The position numbers and the translations under genes are program-made. A DNA stretch of 64,000 nucleotides, from the NCBI GenBank assembly GCA_963663895.2, contig CAXXRD010000003.1, positions 1 to 64,000 of the forward strand. Direction: 5' to 3'. Source of the stretch: Dehalococcoidia bacterium. GTDB lineage: Bacteria > Chloroflexota > Dehalococcoidia > Bin125. The notes under the pieces were generated by a model. The model saw nothing but the letters and a program-made list of their open reading frames with translations, did not search any database and had not been told where the DNA came from. Below, in pieces: positions 1,013 through 6,442 of the stretch (position 1 is its first letter; the number at the start of each line of letters is the position of its first letter).

Positions 1013-1204
1013 TCCCCGTCCGCCTCCTCGATACGGACGACCTCGCGCCCACGATAGGTGCCGCAGGTATAGCAGACGCGATGCGCCACCATGGGCGACT
1101 GGCAGTTTCCGCAACGGACGACTGTCGCGCGGCGTTGCTGTAAATGCTGCCGCCGCAGTCGCTGGCGAGTCTTCGCGTATTTGGCGCTTTGGAAGTGGTG
1201 GCAA
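1009..1204 (-). pseudogene. rpmF: 50S ribosomal protein L32 (zinc-binding type) with a +1 frameshift as sequenced
   Basis: TTG at 1204 with GGAG upstream gives MPPLPKR; after one extra C (~1183) the frame reads KYAKTRQRLRRQHL...CGNC...HRVCYTCGTYRGREV...*. Length 196 nt (3n+1). Canonical position between yceD and fabD. May be a sequencing error. Confidence 0.85.
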
Positions 1205-1250
1205 CTTGCAGTTCTCCAACCGGTCTGCGGCAGACCCTGTAAACCCTACG

Positions 1251-1742
1251 CTAGTCCAGCTCGCAGCGCAGCCGCTCAAGAGCACCCCAACGCCTATCCG
1301 GCTCCCTGCGGCTTCCTTGTCGCGAAGCGTCTGGCGTGCCGCGACACTCGGAACCGCAAAAGGGCCGCATCGGCCGCGCCATCTCGACATATTGCCGGGC
1401 TGCCTCGCTCAGGTCGAGTTGCCCTTGGATAATTCGAAAACCTTCGCGTCCCTCCGGCATCTCCACAGGCGCATGGCTCACGTGGTCGTATTCTGGCCAG
1501 AACTCCTCGCTGAACGCTAGAGGAAGCGGCGCGATGTACTCGCGCGCGCAATCGCTGCACACGGCTGGGACCGGCGCGCTGAGACGCACCGTTGCCAGGA
1601 TCGATCCGTCGGTGCGTAGAAGCTCGACCGCCCCGCTAACGGTAGTCGCAATCCCTTCCACCTCAAGCGGCTCGCTCGCAAGGCGAAAACTCCGTCGGCT
1701 GCCGATCGGCTCCTGCAGGAGCTGTGAGACGTTGAATTGCAC
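1251..1742 (-). CDS. yceD: DUF177/YceD family protein
   Basis: QFNVSQLL start, CSDC and C-terminal CGSECRG...DRRWGAL motifs; upstream of rpmF. Confidence 0.88.
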   Translation of the reverse strand: MQFNVSQLLQEPIGSRRSFRLASEPLEVEGIATTVSGAVELLRTDGSILATVRLSAPVPAVCSDCAREYIAPLPLAFSEEFWPEYDHVSHAPVEMPEGREGFRIIQGQLDLSEAARQYVEMARPMRPFCGSECRGTPDASRQGSRREPDRRWGALERLRCELD

Positions 1743-1914
1743 GACAGGCCTACATGTTTGCAAGGATGAGGCGGGCGCGGCAAATGACTGATTACGCACA
1801 CGCGCGTCGGTATTTCTCTTGCCTACCTTAATCTTTCCACTGAGCCGGACGCGACTATTGCGTTAGCGAACATCGGTTCGTAAGCTCAGATAGCCTATCC
1901 GAAGCGGAGAACGC

Positions 1915-2619
1915 ATGATCGCACTGAGCGACCTGTCGGAGTTGCAAGAGATCGATCTTCGTCTCGATGCCCTCAAGCGGGAGCGCGACGACAAGCTTCA
2001 GCAGACCAGAGACGATCCGCGTTATGGGGTGGCCAGTCTTCAGGCTGAGGAAAGCGCACAACGGCAGATTCTCGACGAAGTGCGCGGGCACAGGCAGTCG
2101 CTGGAGCGAGGTACCGAAGACGCCCGGACGAAGATCCAAGCCGAGGACACCAAGCTCTACGGTGGCGAGATCAAGGACCCTAAAGAGCTCAGCAACCTTC
2201 AAGCGGAGATCTTCGCTCTGCGGCGCGCGCTCCGGGCACAAGAGGATCAACTCTTAGCTCTCATCGAACAGGAAGAGGAAGCGCAGGCAGCGGCTGTACA
2301 CCTCGAGAAGCTCGTCGAAGCGTCACGCGCTCGCTGGCAGCAGCAGCAGCAGCAGCTTCGGACGGAGACCACGGCGCTTGAGGAGGAGATCGCTGCGATC
2401 GGAGAGGAAGTGAGCGCGACGCGGGCGGATATCGAGGCGGAAGCGCTGGAGATCTACGACGCTCAACGTCGCCTCATGCCCATTGTGATCGCGCGCGTCG
2501 TGGGAGGCGCCTGTAGCGGCTGCCGCCTCACGCTTCCCATCAACGCGGTCAACCGCGCCCGGCGCGCCGATCAACCGGTTCGGTGCCCCTCCTGTCAGCG
2601 GATCTTGTACGTGGCCTAG
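1915..2619 (+). CDS. Coiled-coil plus C4 zinc-ribbon protein (DUF164/HP0958-like)
   Basis: LQEIDLRL N-terminus, long coiled coil, C-terminal CSGC...CPSCQRILY. Confidence 0.88.
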   Translation: MIALSDLSELQEIDLRLDALKRERDDKLQQTRDDPRYGVASLQAEESAQRQILDEVRGHRQSLERGTEDARTKIQAEDTKLYGGEIKDPKELSNLQAEIFALRRALRAQEDQLLALIEQEEEAQAAAVHLEKLVEASRARWQQQQQQLRTETTALEEEIAAIGEEVSATRADIEAEALEIYDAQRRLMPIVIARVVGGACSGCRLTLPINAVNRARRADQPVRCPSCQRILYVA

Positions 2620-2623
2620 CCCA

Positions 2624-4048
2624 ATGCGCGCAGTCGGATACTTCAGCGGCAACCTCCCCAACGCCTCTTCGCAGCGTGCCCCCCCTTCGCTCTCCGACCA
2701 GAACGATGCGTTCCTAGAGGCCTGTCGCACACACGGCTATGAAGCCACTGCTTCGTTCCTTGATGCCGACATCCGCAGTGACCGTCCTGGCCTGCGGCAG
2801 ATGCTCGCATTCCTCCAACGCCCCGCCCCTGATTTCTGCATTGTGGTCGTCCACACGTTCAACCATCTCGGTGCCAGCCAGATCGACGCGATTCGCACCT
2901 TCTATGAGATCACGGAGTTGGGAGCTTCCGTTCTTAGCTTGGCAGAGGGATCCATAGACGACGAGCGCATCATCCAATTTTGGAACGACGCGCCGGGCGG
3001 CCATTTGGGCAAGCAGGTGCGCGAGGCGATGCGACGGCGCGCGGTGTCCGGGGCGGTTCTAGGCCGTCCGCCCTTCGGCTATCGGGTGGGACCGGATCGC
3101 CGCTTGGAGATCGTCGAGAACGAGGCGGCCCTCGTCCGGCACATTTTCCGGCTCTATCTGGAGGAGAACCTCGGGGTGCGGCGGATCGCGCGTCGCCTCA
3201 ACGAGGAAGGCTACCGCACGCGCCGGGGCGGGAACTGGAGCATGGTCTCTATCCGGGACATCCTCCGCAATCGCGTCTACGTGGGCACTTACGCCCGCTT
3301 CGGCATCACGGTACCCGGTAGCCACCCCCCGATCGTTACCGAGGATCAGTTCCGCGCTGTCCAAGTGCGACTGCAGGACCGGCGGACCGCTACCTCGGCG
3401 CGAAATCCGAGCCGCTACCTCCTCTCCGGCCTCGCCCACTGCGGCGACTGCGGTAATCGGATGATCGGTGTCTCCCGCAAGCAGCAATGGCGGCGCGGCA
3501 ACGGCGACACAGCGGAACAGGCGTACCGCTATTACCAGTGCGAGTCTCGCACCAACCAATCGGTCTGTGATTACCACACACGGCGCGCTGACGATCTGGA
3601 AGCTGAGGTCGTTGGTCATATCAAGGGCCATGAACCTGATGCGGTACAGCCGTCTGTTATCCGCGCTGGCGATGAGCAAGCGGTTGCGGCCGGCGCTGCT
3701 CAAGCCGCTGCGCGTACCCGCGGCCGCCTGCGTTCCCTCGATCGTCGCTTGTCCGAGCAACTCAACCGCCTCGCGGACAACCGCATCTCGCGCCACGAAT
3801 TCCGCACCGCGGCCAACCTGCTCGTCCGCGAGCGCCGTCGCGCCGCCGACGAGCTGCGCGCTCAAGAGCAGCGCGCTTCGGTTCACGCTTTTGAAGTGGA
3901 GCAGCGTAAGCACTTTGACCGGCAGGTCGAGCGCATCCGCACCAGCTGGGATCAGCTCTCATTCGACACGCGCCAGTCGACGCTCCGCGAACTCGTGGAG
4001 CGGGTCATCGTCCGCGATGATGGCATCACGACGGTCCTTCGCGGCTGA
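2624..4048 (+). CDS. Large serine recombinase family protein with a degenerate catalytic domain
   Basis: GRPPFGY, EAALVRHIF, IARRLNEEG, W...IRDILRNRVYVG and HPPIV recombinase-domain motifs; YLLSGLAHCGDCG...YYQC...C zinc ribbon; coiled coil; LVERVIV tail. The resolvase-type N-terminus lacks YxRxS, SG and DRLxR. Confidence 0.88.
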   Translation: MRAVGYFSGNLPNASSQRAPPSLSDQNDAFLEACRTHGYEATASFLDADIRSDRPGLRQMLAFLQRPAPDFCIVVVHTFNHLGASQIDAIRTFYEITELGASVLSLAEGSIDDERIIQFWNDAPGGHLGKQVREAMRRRAVSGAVLGRPPFGYRVGPDRRLEIVENEAALVRHIFRLYLEENLGVRRIARRLNEEGYRTRRGGNWSMVSIRDILRNRVYVGTYARFGITVPGSHPPIVTEDQFRAVQVRLQDRRTATSARNPSRYLLSGLAHCGDCGNRMIGVSRKQQWRRGNGDTAEQAYRYYQCESRTNQSVCDYHTRRADDLEAEVVGHIKGHEPDAVQPSVIRAGDEQAVAAGAAQAAARTRGRLRSLDRRLSEQLNRLADNRISRHEFRTAANLLVRERRRAADELRAQEQRASVHAFEVEQRKHFDRQVERIRTSWDQLSFDTRQSTLRELVERVIVRDDGITTVLRG

Positions 4049-4053
4049 CGCGC

Positions 4054-4461
4054 GTGCGCCTGATCGCTTACGCCGACGGCGCCGCGCGCGGTAATCCAGG
4101 CCCGGCCGCTTGCGGCGCCGTCGTCCTCGACCACGACGGGAACGAGTTGCGCCGTATTGCACAGGCGATCGGCCGCGGGACCAATAACGAAGCCGAGTAC
4201 CGTGCTGCCATCGCTGCTGTGCGCGCCGCCCTTGAGCTTGGCGCTACCGAGCTTCAGCTTCGGCTCGACTCCCAGTTGGTCGTGCGGCAGCTCCAGGGGA
4301 GCTATCGCGTGCGCAACGAACGGCTCAAGCCCCTCTATCGAGAGCTCGACGCTCTCTCCGATCAATTCGTTCGGTTCAGCGTTGGCCACGTCCCACGCGA
4401 GCAGAACCGCCGCGCGGATGCGCTGGCGAACGCCGCCCTTGACGGTAAAGAGCCAGACTGA
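4054..4461 (+). CDS. rnhA: Ribonuclease HI (short, archaeal-like type)
   Basis: YADGAARGNPGPA, TNNEAEY, DSQLVVRQ and HVPREQNRRADALAN motifs. Confidence 0.93.
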   Translation: MRLIAYADGAARGNPGPAACGAVVLDHDGNELRRIAQAIGRGTNNEAEYRAAIAAVRAALELGATELQLRLDSQLVVRQLQGSYRVRNERLKPLYRELDALSDQFVRFSVGHVPREQNRRADALANAALDGKEPD

Positions 4462-4511
4462 GCACGTCGCTTCGGTCCCAACGCGCCGGGGCGCGGGTGT
4501 ACGATCACCAT

Positions 4512-4883
4512 GGGCCAGGTGGCCGGGTGGCCGCGGCCTCTTGAACACGGGAGGTCGAGGAAAGTCCGAGCTCCACCGAGACAGGGCGCTGGGTAACTCC
4601 CAGTAGGGGTGACCCTCAGGAAAGCGCCACAGAAACAAACCGCCTCCCGCTTGGCGGCGCGAGGTAAGGGTGAAATGGTGCGGTAAGAGCGCACCAGCGG
4701 TCGGGTGACCGGCCGGCTGGGCAAGCCCCGCCCGGAGCAAGACCGCATAGGAGGGCCATGGGAGTCTCGGCCCGCCCTCGGGTAGGTCGCTAGAGGCGAC
4801 GGGTAACCGCCGCCCCAGAGAGATGGTCACCGCCTGCCGCTGCGGCGGCGGGAACAGAACTCGGCTTACAGGCCACCTGGCCC
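4512..4883 (+). ncRNA. rnpB: RNase P RNA (bacterial type A)
   Basis: Terminal P1 helix GGGCCAGGTGGCC/GGCCACCTGGCCC; GAGGAAAGTCC at 4557; CACAGAAA, GGGTGAAATGGTGCGGTAAGAGCGCACC and AACAGAACTCGGCTTA conserved elements. Confidence 0.97.
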
Positions 4884-4909
4884 TTGAGTCCCAGCTACGC
4901 AGGTGATGG

Positions 4910-6442
4910 ATGCCGGAAACGCGACGTACGCTCTCCGATCTTCTCGCTGCGACGCCCGTGCTCCAGTGGCACGGCGAGGTCGATCTGCCTATCCCTGCGG
5001 TGACACAAGACTCGCGTACCGCGGCGGTTGGTGCTTGCTTCGTCGCTGTCCCGGGTTTCCACGTCGACGGACACCGGTTTCTCACGGAGGCCTACCGCCG
5101 TGGCGCGCGCGCCTTCGTTGTGCAGGCGGACCGGCGCGCGCTTTGGGTGCCCCTTCTCCAGTACTCGCACGCGGTGATCGCGGTCGTCGCGGACACGCGT
5201 GCCGCCTTGGCCGACCTTGCCGCTGCGTTCTACGGCTATCCCGCGCGATCGATGACGGTCGTGGGCGTTACCGGCACCGACGGTAAGAGCACAACCTGCT
5301 ATCTGATCGCTGCCATTCTCGAAGCGGCGGGTTATCGCAATGGTTTGATCGGTGGGGTGCAATTCAAGATCGCCAATGAGTGGCGAATGAACGATCGCAC
5401 GCAGACTAGTCCCGAGTCTCCTTTGGTACAGGAGCTGCTCGCGGAGATGGTCGGCGCAGGAGTCACCCACGCCGTCGTCGAATCCACCTCCCATGGCTTG
5501 GCGCTGCATCGACTCGATCATTGCGAATTCGACATCGCGGTCTTTACGGGCCTCTCCGACGACCACCTCGATTTTCACGAAACGCGCGCTGCCTACCGTG
5601 ACGCGAAAGCCGCGCTCTTCCGCGCGCTGGATCGGTCCGCCGATAAGGAAACGGCCAAGCGCGGGGTTGTCAACGCGGACGATGCCGAGGCGGCGTTTTT
5701 CGCCGCCGCTACAGCCGCGCCAGTCGTCCGGGTCGGTTTGGACGCGGCGGAGTTGGACTTGACGGTGACCGATCTCCGCCAATCCGCGACGAGTTCGGCC
5801 TTCACACTGCGGACGCCGGCCGGAGATACGCAGGTTGAGCTCGCGTTGCCCGCACGATTCAACGTGCGCAATGCTCTCGCTGCGGCGGGCGCGGCGCACG
5901 CGCTTGGGATCGAGCCTGCGGCGATCGCGGCCGGCCTCAGCACCGTGCAGACGATTCCCGGCAGGATGGAGCGGATCGACTGCGGTCAGCCCTACACGGT
6001 GGTGGTAGATGCAGCGGCCACCACCGATGCACTGCGCGTGGTCATGGAGTCGGTGCGGCCGCTTCTCCGTGGTCGGCTGATCTTGGTTTTCGGCTGCGCG
6101 GGCGAGCGCGATCCCGGCCGGCGCCGTGGCATGGGTGCGGTGGCGGCGCGGTACGCCGACTACACTGTGGTGACCAGCGAAAACCCCCGTTCCGAAGAGC
6201 CTTCCGAAATTGTACGCGAGATCGCAACCGCCCTGGAGGCTGCCGGGCGCCGCCGCGGCCGCGACTTTGAAGAAGAGCCGGACCGGCGCGCTGCGATCGC
6301 GCGGGCCTTCGACCTCGCTCGGCCGGACGACTATGTCTTGATCGCCGGTAAGGGTGCGGAGCAGACACTGATCTTCGCCGACCGAACCCAGGCTTGGGAC
6401 GATCGCGAGATCAGCTGTGCCCTGCTCACCGCCCGAACCTAG
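4910..6442 (+). CDS. murE: MurE-like ATP-dependent amide ligase
   Basis: DSR, GFHVDGH, GVTGTDGKSTT P-loop, ESTSHGL, DHLDFH, PGRME, VFGCAGERD and IAGKG. Several specificity motifs diverge. Confidence 0.82.
   Translation: MPETRRTLSDLLAATPVLQWHGEVDLPIPAVTQDSRTAAVGACFVAVPGFHVDGHRFLTEAYRRGARAFVVQADRRALWVPLLQYSHAVIAVVADTRAALADLAAAFYGYPARSMTVVGVTGTDGKSTTCYLIAAILEAAGYRNGLIGGVQFKIANEWRMNDRTQTSPESPLVQELLAEMVGAGVTHAVVESTSHGLALHRLDHCEFDIAVFTGLSDDHLDFHETRAAYRDAKAALFRALDRSADKETAKRGVVNADDAEAAFFAAATAAPVVRVGLDAAELDLTVTDLRQSATSSAFTLRTPAGDTQVELALPARFNVRNALAAAGAAHALGIEPAAIAAGLSTVQTIPGRMERIDCGQPYTVVVDAAATTDALRVVMESVRPLLRGRLILVFGCAGERDPGRRRGMGAVAARYADYTVVTSENPRSEEPSEIVREIATALEAAGRRRGRDFEEEPDRRAAIARAFDLARPDDYVLIAGKGAEQTLIFADRTQAWDDREISCALLTART

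Follow-up and report, generated by a model that had tools for sequence, protein, structure and literature searches.

The recombinase-like gene and its locus

The stretch of DNA analyzed here (hereafter the window: 64,000 nucleotides, positions 1 to 64,000 of contig CAXXRD010000003.1 from the Dehalococcoidia bacterium assembly GCA_963663895.2) carries a recombinase-like open reading frame (ORF), referred to as Rec*, that is homologous to the large serine recombinases (LSRs) and stands between a zinc-ribbon protein gene and the genes of RNase HI (rnhA) and RNase P RNA (rnpB). Our best reading of the sequence comparisons is that Rec* represents a pseudo-enzyme offshoot of the LSRs that forms an undescribed two-gene module with the adjacent CT398-family protein. 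The locus comprises the following genes:

1915-2619, plus strand: zinc-ribbon protein gene (234 amino acids, aa), CT398/CdsZ/HP0958-like, with coiled-coil hairpin and C4 zinc ribbon; constant upstream partner of Rec*
2624-4048, plus strand: Rec*, recombinase-like ORF of 474 aa without stops, LSR homolog
4054-4461, plus strand: rnhA, RNase HI of 135 aa with GTG start (PF13456, E 3.7e-25; PF00075, E 5.4e-12)
4515-4884, plus strand: rnpB, RNase P RNA of bacterial class A (RF00010, 289.2 bits, E 3.1e-94, model positions 1-367 of 367)

The original prediction, made from the nucleotide sequence, had described Rec* as an apparently catalytically dead LSR placed 4 bp after the zinc-ribbon gene and 5 bp before rnhA; the ORF positions confirmed this arrangement as well as the full-length, stop-free frame of 474 aa. 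The two spacers (4 nt, TAG CCCA ATG, and 5 nt, TGA CGCGC GTG) leave, as had been argued, no room for att sites, cargo or a directionality factor, and their length of few nucleotides suggests coupled translation of the genes around Rec*. The GC content of Rec* (0.63-0.67) equals that of its flanks, and there are no tRNA genes within 12 kb of the locus. A divergent YceD-family gene lies upstream of the zinc-ribbon gene, and murE starts downstream at position 4910. Rec* lies outside any mobile-element context: its flanks are housekeeping genes in conserved order, and the synteny is fixed.

Architecture and active site of Rec*

According to the profile matches and structural alignments, Rec* retains the complete succession of LSR modules:

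2624-2998, plus strand: N-domain (residues 1-125), resolvase fold, catalytic residues lost
2999-3103, plus strand: second half of helix E and GRPPFGY linker (residues 126-160), aligned with the C-terminal part of gamma-delta helix E
3104-3409, plus strand: Recombinase domain (RD, residues 161-262), PF07508 at residues 165-253 (E 1.5e-23), aligned with the A118 integrase RD
3410-3628, plus strand: zinc-ribbon domain (ZD) core (residues 263-335), PF13408 (Zn_ribbon_recom) at residues 266-334 (E 8.6e-14)
3629-4048, plus strand: coiled-coil hairpin (residues 336-445), C-terminal beta strands and stop, aligned with the C-terminal part of the A118 and SPbeta integrases

The AlphaFold2 (AF2) model of Rec* (mean predicted local distance difference test, pLDDT, 81.5; predicted template modelling score, pTM, 0.49) contains a resolvase-like alpha/beta N-domain, the RD, a beta-ribbon ZD, two helices (residues 351-384 and 390-444) that form a hairpin of about 95 residues (351-444), and strands at residues 458-472; helix E is broken in the model by a low-confidence segment (residues 125-130). 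The top Foldseek matches of this model were the SPbeta, Bxb1, PhiC31 and A118 integrases (E 4e-21 to 1e-15), accompanied by the isolated catalytic domains of TP901-1 and gamma-delta resolvase. Profiles built from orthologs also matched solved structures: a full-length profile of 18 orthologs matched the A118 integrase (4kis, 3e-17) and the SPbeta integrase (9dxh, 3e-16), and an N-domain profile of 29 orthologs matched the resolvase-family catalytic domains 3guv (8.8e-6), TP901-1 (3e-4) and gamma-delta (1e-3). The predicted retention of Recombinase domain, zinc ribbon and coiled coil was thereby borne out by PF07508, PF13408 and the AF2 hairpin (351-444). The Resolvase family PF00239 gave no hmmscan match to Rec* at E<=0.1; PF00239.26 was, however, detected in a six-frame search of the genome (35.2 bits, window 2666-2962, residues 15-113), and a precomputed PF00239 label is present on many orthologs. 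Since PF00239 was found by this other route, the missing Pfam hit is not usable as evidence of loss.

The loss is documented by the alignments themselves. The "YTRVS" of TP901-1 aligned to Y6-F-S8-G-N10 of Rec* and the "LDRLGR" of gamma-delta to N80-H81-L82-G83-A84. The intact relative P0192, which is collinear with Rec* over the full length of the BLASTP alignment (27% identity, E 4e-26), reads "GYFRVS", "DIASGTRTDR" and "DRFGR" where the window reads "GYFSGN", "DADIRSDRPG" and "NHLGA". On the basis of these three alignments the nucleophile and four further catalytic residues are replaced: the catalytic positions of the window protein are occupied by S8, N10, N80, H81 and A84 in place of the nucleophile serine and of R8, D67, R68 and R71 (gamma-delta resolvase numbering), which we take to be the catalytic Arg/Asp set; the equivalents of D36 and R45 are still present as D47 and R54. 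The proposed alteration of all three motifs of the catalytic domain therefore stands, with the qualification that the N-domain stays recognizable as a resolvase fold by PF00239.26 and Foldseek. In sum of its features, Rec* has the resolvase fold, PF07508, PF13408 and the coiled coil of an LSR, and it lacks the nucleophile and the catalytic set.

The same condition was encountered in the relatives. In the N-domain alignment of the 29 orthologs, which covers more than 20 families, Ser10 was present in three and R8 in eleven sequences; the two orthologs that combine both (L030, L032) carry V/T and S/D at the R68 and R71 positions, and R68 together with R71 occurred in none of the 29. No conserved alternative serine (Ser8 or one nearby) was available to act as nucleophile, as position 8 varies among the orthologs (R/S/T/H/K/V/L/G/P/N) and Ser10 is limited to the three sequences mentioned. 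Within the window's family position 8 is more uniform (Ser in 9 of 11 aligned members, one Thr, one Arg). When the N-domain profile was compared with 1.84 billion representatives, 5838 matches were obtained at E<=1e-3, 311 at <=1e-10 and 27 at <=1e-30. Among the best 150 of these matches, Tyr6 is found in 126 and Phe in 11, and 125 are devoid of the complete R8+S10+R68+R71 set; the 25 with the set all belong to a weaker-scoring group characterized by "GYFRVS...LDRFGR", which is not Rec*. Paralog loci from the genomes of relatives served as a positive control, and in nine of ten a long ORF was present whose N-terminal YxRxS is intact (the tenth, L050, was dropped: no YxRxS within the first 110 residues of its longest ORF). 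The full catalytic set is lost in every sampled Rec* member, and Rec* is, as judged from the alignments, catalytically dead.

All four zinc cysteines (C273, C276, C306, C315; zinc-ribbon Cys region of residues 273-315, window 3440-3568) are present in the window protein. The four-cysteine ribbon named in the original prediction is thus correct for the window and does not extend to the whole family: C273 is retained in 35 of 35 aligned orthologs, C276 and C306 in only 23 of 35 each (C315 was left out of this tally). Among aligned family members outside the window's genus and L004 (orthologs L005-L020), most have G, S or N at three of the four zinc cysteine positions. In these members the ribbon seems to persist without zinc, given that the surrounding YRYYQ...RTNQS motif is kept.

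In comparison with known systems, the SPbeta SprA/YokA, A118/LI, Bxb1 and PhiC31 integrases have the same four-module architecture and fold as Rec*. In contrast to these enzymes, Rec* is devoid of the nucleophile serine and of R8/D67/R68/R71, has no att sites, cargo or directionality factor nearby and is chromosomal, single-copy and vertically inherited; in addition, its helix E appears in the model to be broken by a variable segment of low confidence. Of the intact kin, the closest one found is the "GYFRVS...LDRFGR" group of metagenomic LSRs (e.g. P0192), known in databases only as "site-specific DNA recombinase": it shares the "AVGYF" N-terminus and the context of the conserved Cys34 with Rec*, keeps the whole catalytic set and falls on the other side of the Rec* branch (Shimodaira-Hasegawa-like approximate likelihood ratio test, SH-aLRT, 100). 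XisF, SpoIVCA and the Ccr recombinases are LSRs that were recruited to host or element functions. XisF is also the best NCBIfam match of Rec* (79 bits versus a cut-off of 375; another XisF/SpoIVCA/Ccr-type score was 73 versus 900); unlike Rec*, these recombinases still cut and rejoin DNA.

Distribution, selection and gene neighbourhood

The window's own genome (91% complete) contains one Rec* match, which is at the same time its sole Resolvase-domain and sole Recombinase-domain match. A match was obtained in 35 of 41 relatives, in which orthologs (E<=1e-62) and paralogs (E>=8e-28) are separated by a clear gap in E-value, and a full-length ortholog was present in 24 of 24 genomes of the same family; the patchy occurrence among close relatives that would have spoken for a mobile gene was not seen, in agreement with vertical inheritance. 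Class-wide, exactly one match (E<=1e-40) was found in 158 of 301 sampled genomes (157 of 300 without the unpublished genome G259 included in this count), with an all-or-none distribution by family (e.g. 17/17, 17/17, 16/17 and 8/8 versus 0/12, 0/7 and 0/7). In a phylum-wide sample Rec* occurred in 8 of 301 genomes, all eight of them Dehalococcoidia. Altogether, 457 loci among species genomes encode a relative, the named records being without exception Dehalococcoidia or Chloroflexota metagenome-assembled genomes (MAGs). With 311 representatives at E<=1e-10 and these 457 loci the Rec* family is large, and it marks a deep split within the Dehalococcoidia.

In the phylogenetic trees, 35 Rec* sequences were united on one branch, both against nine paralogs (support 100/99, stem approximately 1.1) and against 27 intact LSRs (one separating branch, SH-aLRT 100), with the window's family as a supported subclade within; Rec* has, on this topology, a single origin. 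Its single copy number, vertical inheritance and fixed locus indicate that Rec* is domesticated rather than mobile. Two disrupted copies were encountered among the relatives: L015 (G003) has an in-frame TAG at residue 250, where a close relative has Glu, and the Rec* gene of G030:C1:1956957-1958392 is split over three frames. These disruptions could be sequencing errors or real pseudogenes.

The ratio of nonsynonymous to synonymous substitution rates (dN/dS; Nei-Gojobori), determined for ten ortholog pairs, was 0.07-0.23 over the entire gene, and relaxed selection, for which the prediction had suggested a test by domain, was not evident in any part: the values were 0.08-0.27 for the N-domain, 0.01-0.29 for the ZD, 0.06-0.40 for the coiled coil and 0.04-0.23 for the RD save one near-identical pair (0.67). 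Single-domain values are mostly <=0.40; the value of 0.67 derives from a short segment of low divergence, and one value is undefined. The orthologs span more than 20 families at 32-97% identity with the frame open. Their conservation is unevenly distributed: the mean pairwise identity of 35 orthologs amounted to 0.38 in the N-domain and 0.30 in the coiled coil versus 0.58 in helix E/linker, 0.59 in the RD and 0.61 in the ZD core, and 36 of 38 invariant columns fall in residues 126-335 (5/35 columns of helix E/linker, 15/102 of the RD, 16/73 of the ZD core). Residues 126-160 and the RD each have a net charge of +7.

The zinc-ribbon gene is positioned directly upstream of Rec* on the same strand in 20 of 20 loci from the window's family and its nearest relatives, in 18 of 20 loci from 20 families and in 80 of 80 loci of a third set (the best 80 of the 457 loci, from named MAGs, partly the same genomes as in the 20-locus sets). 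It is thus the constant partner in the synteny comparison that the original prediction had advised. RNase HI follows Rec* in 19/20, 12/20 and 64/80 of these loci, respectively, and rnpB in 16/19, 11/20 and 64/80 (missing in 16/80). Five Rec*-free genomes of the class differed in their arrangement: zinc-ribbon gene, rnhA and rnpB are adjacent in one (L023), zinc-ribbon gene and rnpB in two, and neither association exists in the remaining two. Judging from these arrangements, the zinc-ribbon/rnhA/rnpB neighbourhood seems to be the older state, into which Rec* was inserted. This neighbourhood had been stated in the prediction to be a known one, and it is in print: in PMC3372290, DUF164 genes are shown next to rnhA for several phyla, and for Borrelia next to the gene of the RNase P RNA. 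COG1579 is given as the top co-occurring partner of NIF3 operons in PMC8469502.

The zinc-ribbon protein matches PF02591 (Zn_ribbon_9, E 3.7e-13) and PF24481 (CT398_CC, E 4.2e-09), and the four cysteines of its CxxC...CxxC ribbon (C200, C203, C224, C227) are invariant in 29 orthologs; coiled-coil hairpin and C4 zinc ribbon are shared with the family of CT398 (CdsZ), HP0958 (FlgZ) and MSMEG_4306. Its score for the CdsZ equivalog of NCBIfam is 54 bits at a cut-off of 275, and by these profile scores the protein is a CT398/CdsZ family member, not the equivalog. The RNase HI has its best NCBIfam match to the N-terminal part of the RNase H/acid phosphatase PRK07238 (142.6 bits, below the cut-off of 326) and carries D8, E47, D72 and D122, presumably the DEDD catalytic set. 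The rnpB score of 289.2 bits lies well above the RF00010 gathering score of 100, and the RNA is preceded by a box of its own:

4500-4505, plus strand: -10-like box of rnpB, TACGAT, 9 nt before rnpB

A TAnnnT hexamer ending 4-17 nt 5' of rnpB was present in 52 of 52 non-redundant loci, whereas 200 shuffles gave 5.8 on average and 12 at most. With an own -10-like box, co-transcription of Rec* and rnpB is not required; despite the tight co-orientation, rnpB appears to form a transcription unit of its own. A functional connection with RNA:DNA hybrids and RNase P, as proposed in the original prediction, is not upheld: rnhA and rnpB accompany Rec* in only 64 of 80 loci each, rnpB has the box of its own, and the zinc-ribbon gene and rnpB are adjacent in genomes without Rec*. 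The roles in R-loop control, replication or chromosome organisation that the prediction had named are speculative.

Several variations of the region were observed in relatives. The -10-like hexamers of rnpB (loci L056-L135) read TATACT, TACACT, TATAAT and similar. In L034, a distant relative, the next gene after Rec* is a large signal recognition particle RNA (2665-2932, minus strand; RF01854, 150 bits) instead of rnpB, so that the place is again taken by a gene for a stable RNA. Six loci (L097, L101, L102, L106, L112, L133) possess an rnhA-rnpB spacer of 300-365 nt instead of 30-150 nt; these spacers are rich in repeated GCA/GCC/CGG, and their opposite strand may contain the gene of a small Cys-rich protein.

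Possible function of Rec* and the region upstream of the operon

Large serine integrases are mobile-element enzymes and tools of genome engineering. We consider it likely, from the conservation pattern and the synteny, that Rec* was exapted as a protein that binds DNA at specific sites without cutting it and acts jointly with the zinc-ribbon protein. In this reading, an integrase gene would have entered the chromosome of an early Dehalococcoidia lineage between a CT398-like zinc-ribbon gene and rnhA/rnpB, the mobile element and the catalytic residues would then have disappeared, and the gene would have been inherited vertically in single copy. The present protein may bind specific DNA without cutting it, probably as a dimer on a dyad site. 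Sequence-specific DNA binding is suggested as the selected function by the conservation peaks in helix E/linker, RD and ZD, i.e. the parts by which active integrases hold DNA, and since the contact domains show hardly any variation, the target site is probably shared throughout the class. Of the domesticated, non-cutting protein proposed originally, the dead active site, the lack of mobility and the purifying selection in every domain are retained in this reading, and the link to RNA:DNA hybrids and RNase P is given up. A Tn3/gamma-delta resolvase dimer represses transcription at res by site-specific binding. This is the closest functional analogy to a non-cutting Rec*; the Tn3/gamma-delta resolvases, unlike Rec*, stay catalytic and have no RD, ZD or coiled coil.

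More speculatively, Rec* and the zinc-ribbon protein could together make up a regulator or architectural factor, in which Rec* would provide the anchor to DNA. In the 2026 preprint 10.64898/2026.07.15.738315, the mycobacterial CT398-family protein ML1638 is predicted to bind the beta-prime shelf and jaw of RNA polymerase. A two-component transcription or chromosome factor that recognizes a site of approximately 40-50 bp, with perhaps bridging by the coiled coil and coupling to RNA polymerase, is nevertheless a rather doubtful extension of the DNA-binding reading. If it were true, the pair would control one or more conserved sites in about half of the sampled Dehalococcoidia, and the DNA-recognition and synapsis machinery of an integrase would have been re-used as a regulator without chemistry.

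Several observations weigh against a DNA-binding Rec* that works with the zinc-ribbon protein. No operator or dyad site for Rec* was seen upstream of the operon, where only promoter-like and ribosome-binding motifs were present. The RNA polymerase link is a structure prediction from another phylum. The co-fold of Rec* with the zinc-ribbon protein, which scored 0.00 in two runs made without controls, speaks neither for nor against binding. L041 has no zinc-ribbon neighbour of Rec*, and disrupted copies exist in 2 of 41 relatives. In the family f6, the Rec* match begins only at approximately residue 89-121 in 16 of 17 genomes, and no zinc-ribbon gene was found beside Rec* in the single f6 locus inspected (L045, G150), although rnhA still follows; the f6 protein may be a natural variant without N-domain. 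Furthermore, N-domain and coiled coil are under selection, which a plain DNA binder does not obviously need. The evidence for expression is weak: in one metatranscriptome run, 5% of the sampled words were recovered, with contigs over 2832-2983, 4136-4327, parts of rnpB and 4939-5000, but the contigs are short and DNA carry-over is possible. As contigs from an RNA library, these data are no proof of transcription or operon structure; hardly anything was recovered from two further RNA runs.

Alternatively, Rec* might have given up DNA binding and act as a scaffold for proteins or RNA, for example in assembling or tethering the zinc-ribbon protein, RNA polymerase or RNase P RNA, with the RD and ZD surfaces re-used for contacts to RNA or protein. 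The selection on N-domain and coiled coil, the constant adjacency to a coiled-coil/zinc-ribbon protein, whose family is reported to bind proteins and mRNA, the nearby rnpB in 64 of 80 loci and the loss of the second and third zinc cysteines in 12 of 35 aligned orthologs are in line with such a role. We nonetheless regard it as improbable, for the best-conserved segments are the positively charged modules (including the GRPPFGY linker) by which active integrases contact DNA, and rnpB, absent at 16 of 80 loci, is preceded by a promoter-like box of its own. It is very unlikely that Rec* constitutes an inactive regulatory subunit which heteromerizes with an active serine recombinase encoded elsewhere, or competes at its att sites, and in this way controls a mobile element or a programmed rearrangement: N-domain, helix E and coiled coil, the subunit-contact parts of integrases, are indeed kept, and some relatives possess several intact LSR paralogs, but the window's genome offers no Resolvase- or Recombinase-domain match except Rec* itself, and the same single match was found in many Rec*-bearing relatives, several of them with single-contig genomes.

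A recombinase or nuclease with an unconventional nucleophile, either Ser8/Thr8 or Tyr6, could be invoked on account of the nearly invariant Tyr6 (126 of 150 representatives) and of Ser8 in nine of eleven members of the window's family (one Thr). This is extremely improbable, given that position 8 is variable across the Rec* family, Tyr6 is replaced by Phe in 11 of 150, the phosphate-activating Arg residues are missing in all Rec* members, att-like repeats and cargo are absent, and the location is fixed in all lineages. Least credible of all is the view of Rec* as the remnant of a prophage in decay whose deletion is still pending. The lost catalytic motifs and the disrupted copies in 2 of 41 relatives would fit a relic; this reading is already contradicted by the selection, frame and synteny data, i.e. 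the dN/dS of 0.07-0.23, the frame that is open and full-length in all 24 genomes of the same family as well as across more than 20 families (32-97% identity), and the single copy at a fixed position. Likewise, the single-copy ortholog distribution, the low dN/dS and the single tree branch indicate that Rec* is not a relic.

As an exapted DNA-binding protein, Rec* would be a case in which nature has uncoupled the DNA recognition of an integrase from its catalysis, and it would give the CT398/HP0958/Rv2229c family, which is poorly understood, a concrete partner. The Dehalococcoidia are an abundant, mostly uncultured environmental class. Database names for Rec* proteins are limited to "recombinase family protein" or "site-specific DNA recombinase"; this calls for caution in automated annotation and integrase mining, in which Rec* genes would count as prophage integrases. 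Full-text literature searches, as far as the texts were accessible, returned no description of Rec* under inactive, domesticated or nucleophile-less serine recombinases or under Dehalococcoidia with serine recombinase or RNase P RNA, and no report of a complete LSR with lost chemistry kept as a core chromosomal gene; the accessible literature on the CT398 family contained no mention of a recombinase-like neighbour.

Two elements are recognizable upstream of the zinc-ribbon gene:

1858-1863 (TTGCGT) and 1881-1886 (TAAGCT), plus strand: putative promoter of the zinc-ribbon/Rec* operon, 17-nt spacer
1894-1910, plus strand: leader motif CCTATCCGAAGCGGAGA with GGAG ribosome-binding site, 17-mer before the zinc-ribbon start codon

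The position of the putative promoter aligns with the TATACT/TAGACT boxes of relatives, and a -10-like CTATAATC upstream of the zinc-ribbon gene was found in 56 of 94 non-redundant relatives, compared with a maximum of 8 in 20 shuffles. A scan of window positions 1200-5200 with consensus promoter and terminator patterns revealed no promoter-like site and one terminator-like site (minus strand, inside rnpB), fewer than in shuffles. The promoter spacer of the window includes a short CGAAC-N4-GTTCG repeat that more distant relatives do not keep.

The leader 17-mer precedes the zinc-ribbon gene with at most three changes in 23 of 120 loci. The 21 matches with at most two changes belong to the window's family or its nearest relatives, and the other two are weak matches with three mismatches. 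The leader is far better conserved than the surrounding intergenic DNA, its matches with at most two changes being confined to one subclade; the consensus CCTAATCGAAGCGGAGA is near-invariant (L004-L015, L057-L071), and the window differs from it by two positions. In L006, the intergenic region upstream of the zinc-ribbon gene is filled by a tandem repeat of approximately five copies with the units GGTGGTGCTTGC and GGTGGTGCCCGC.

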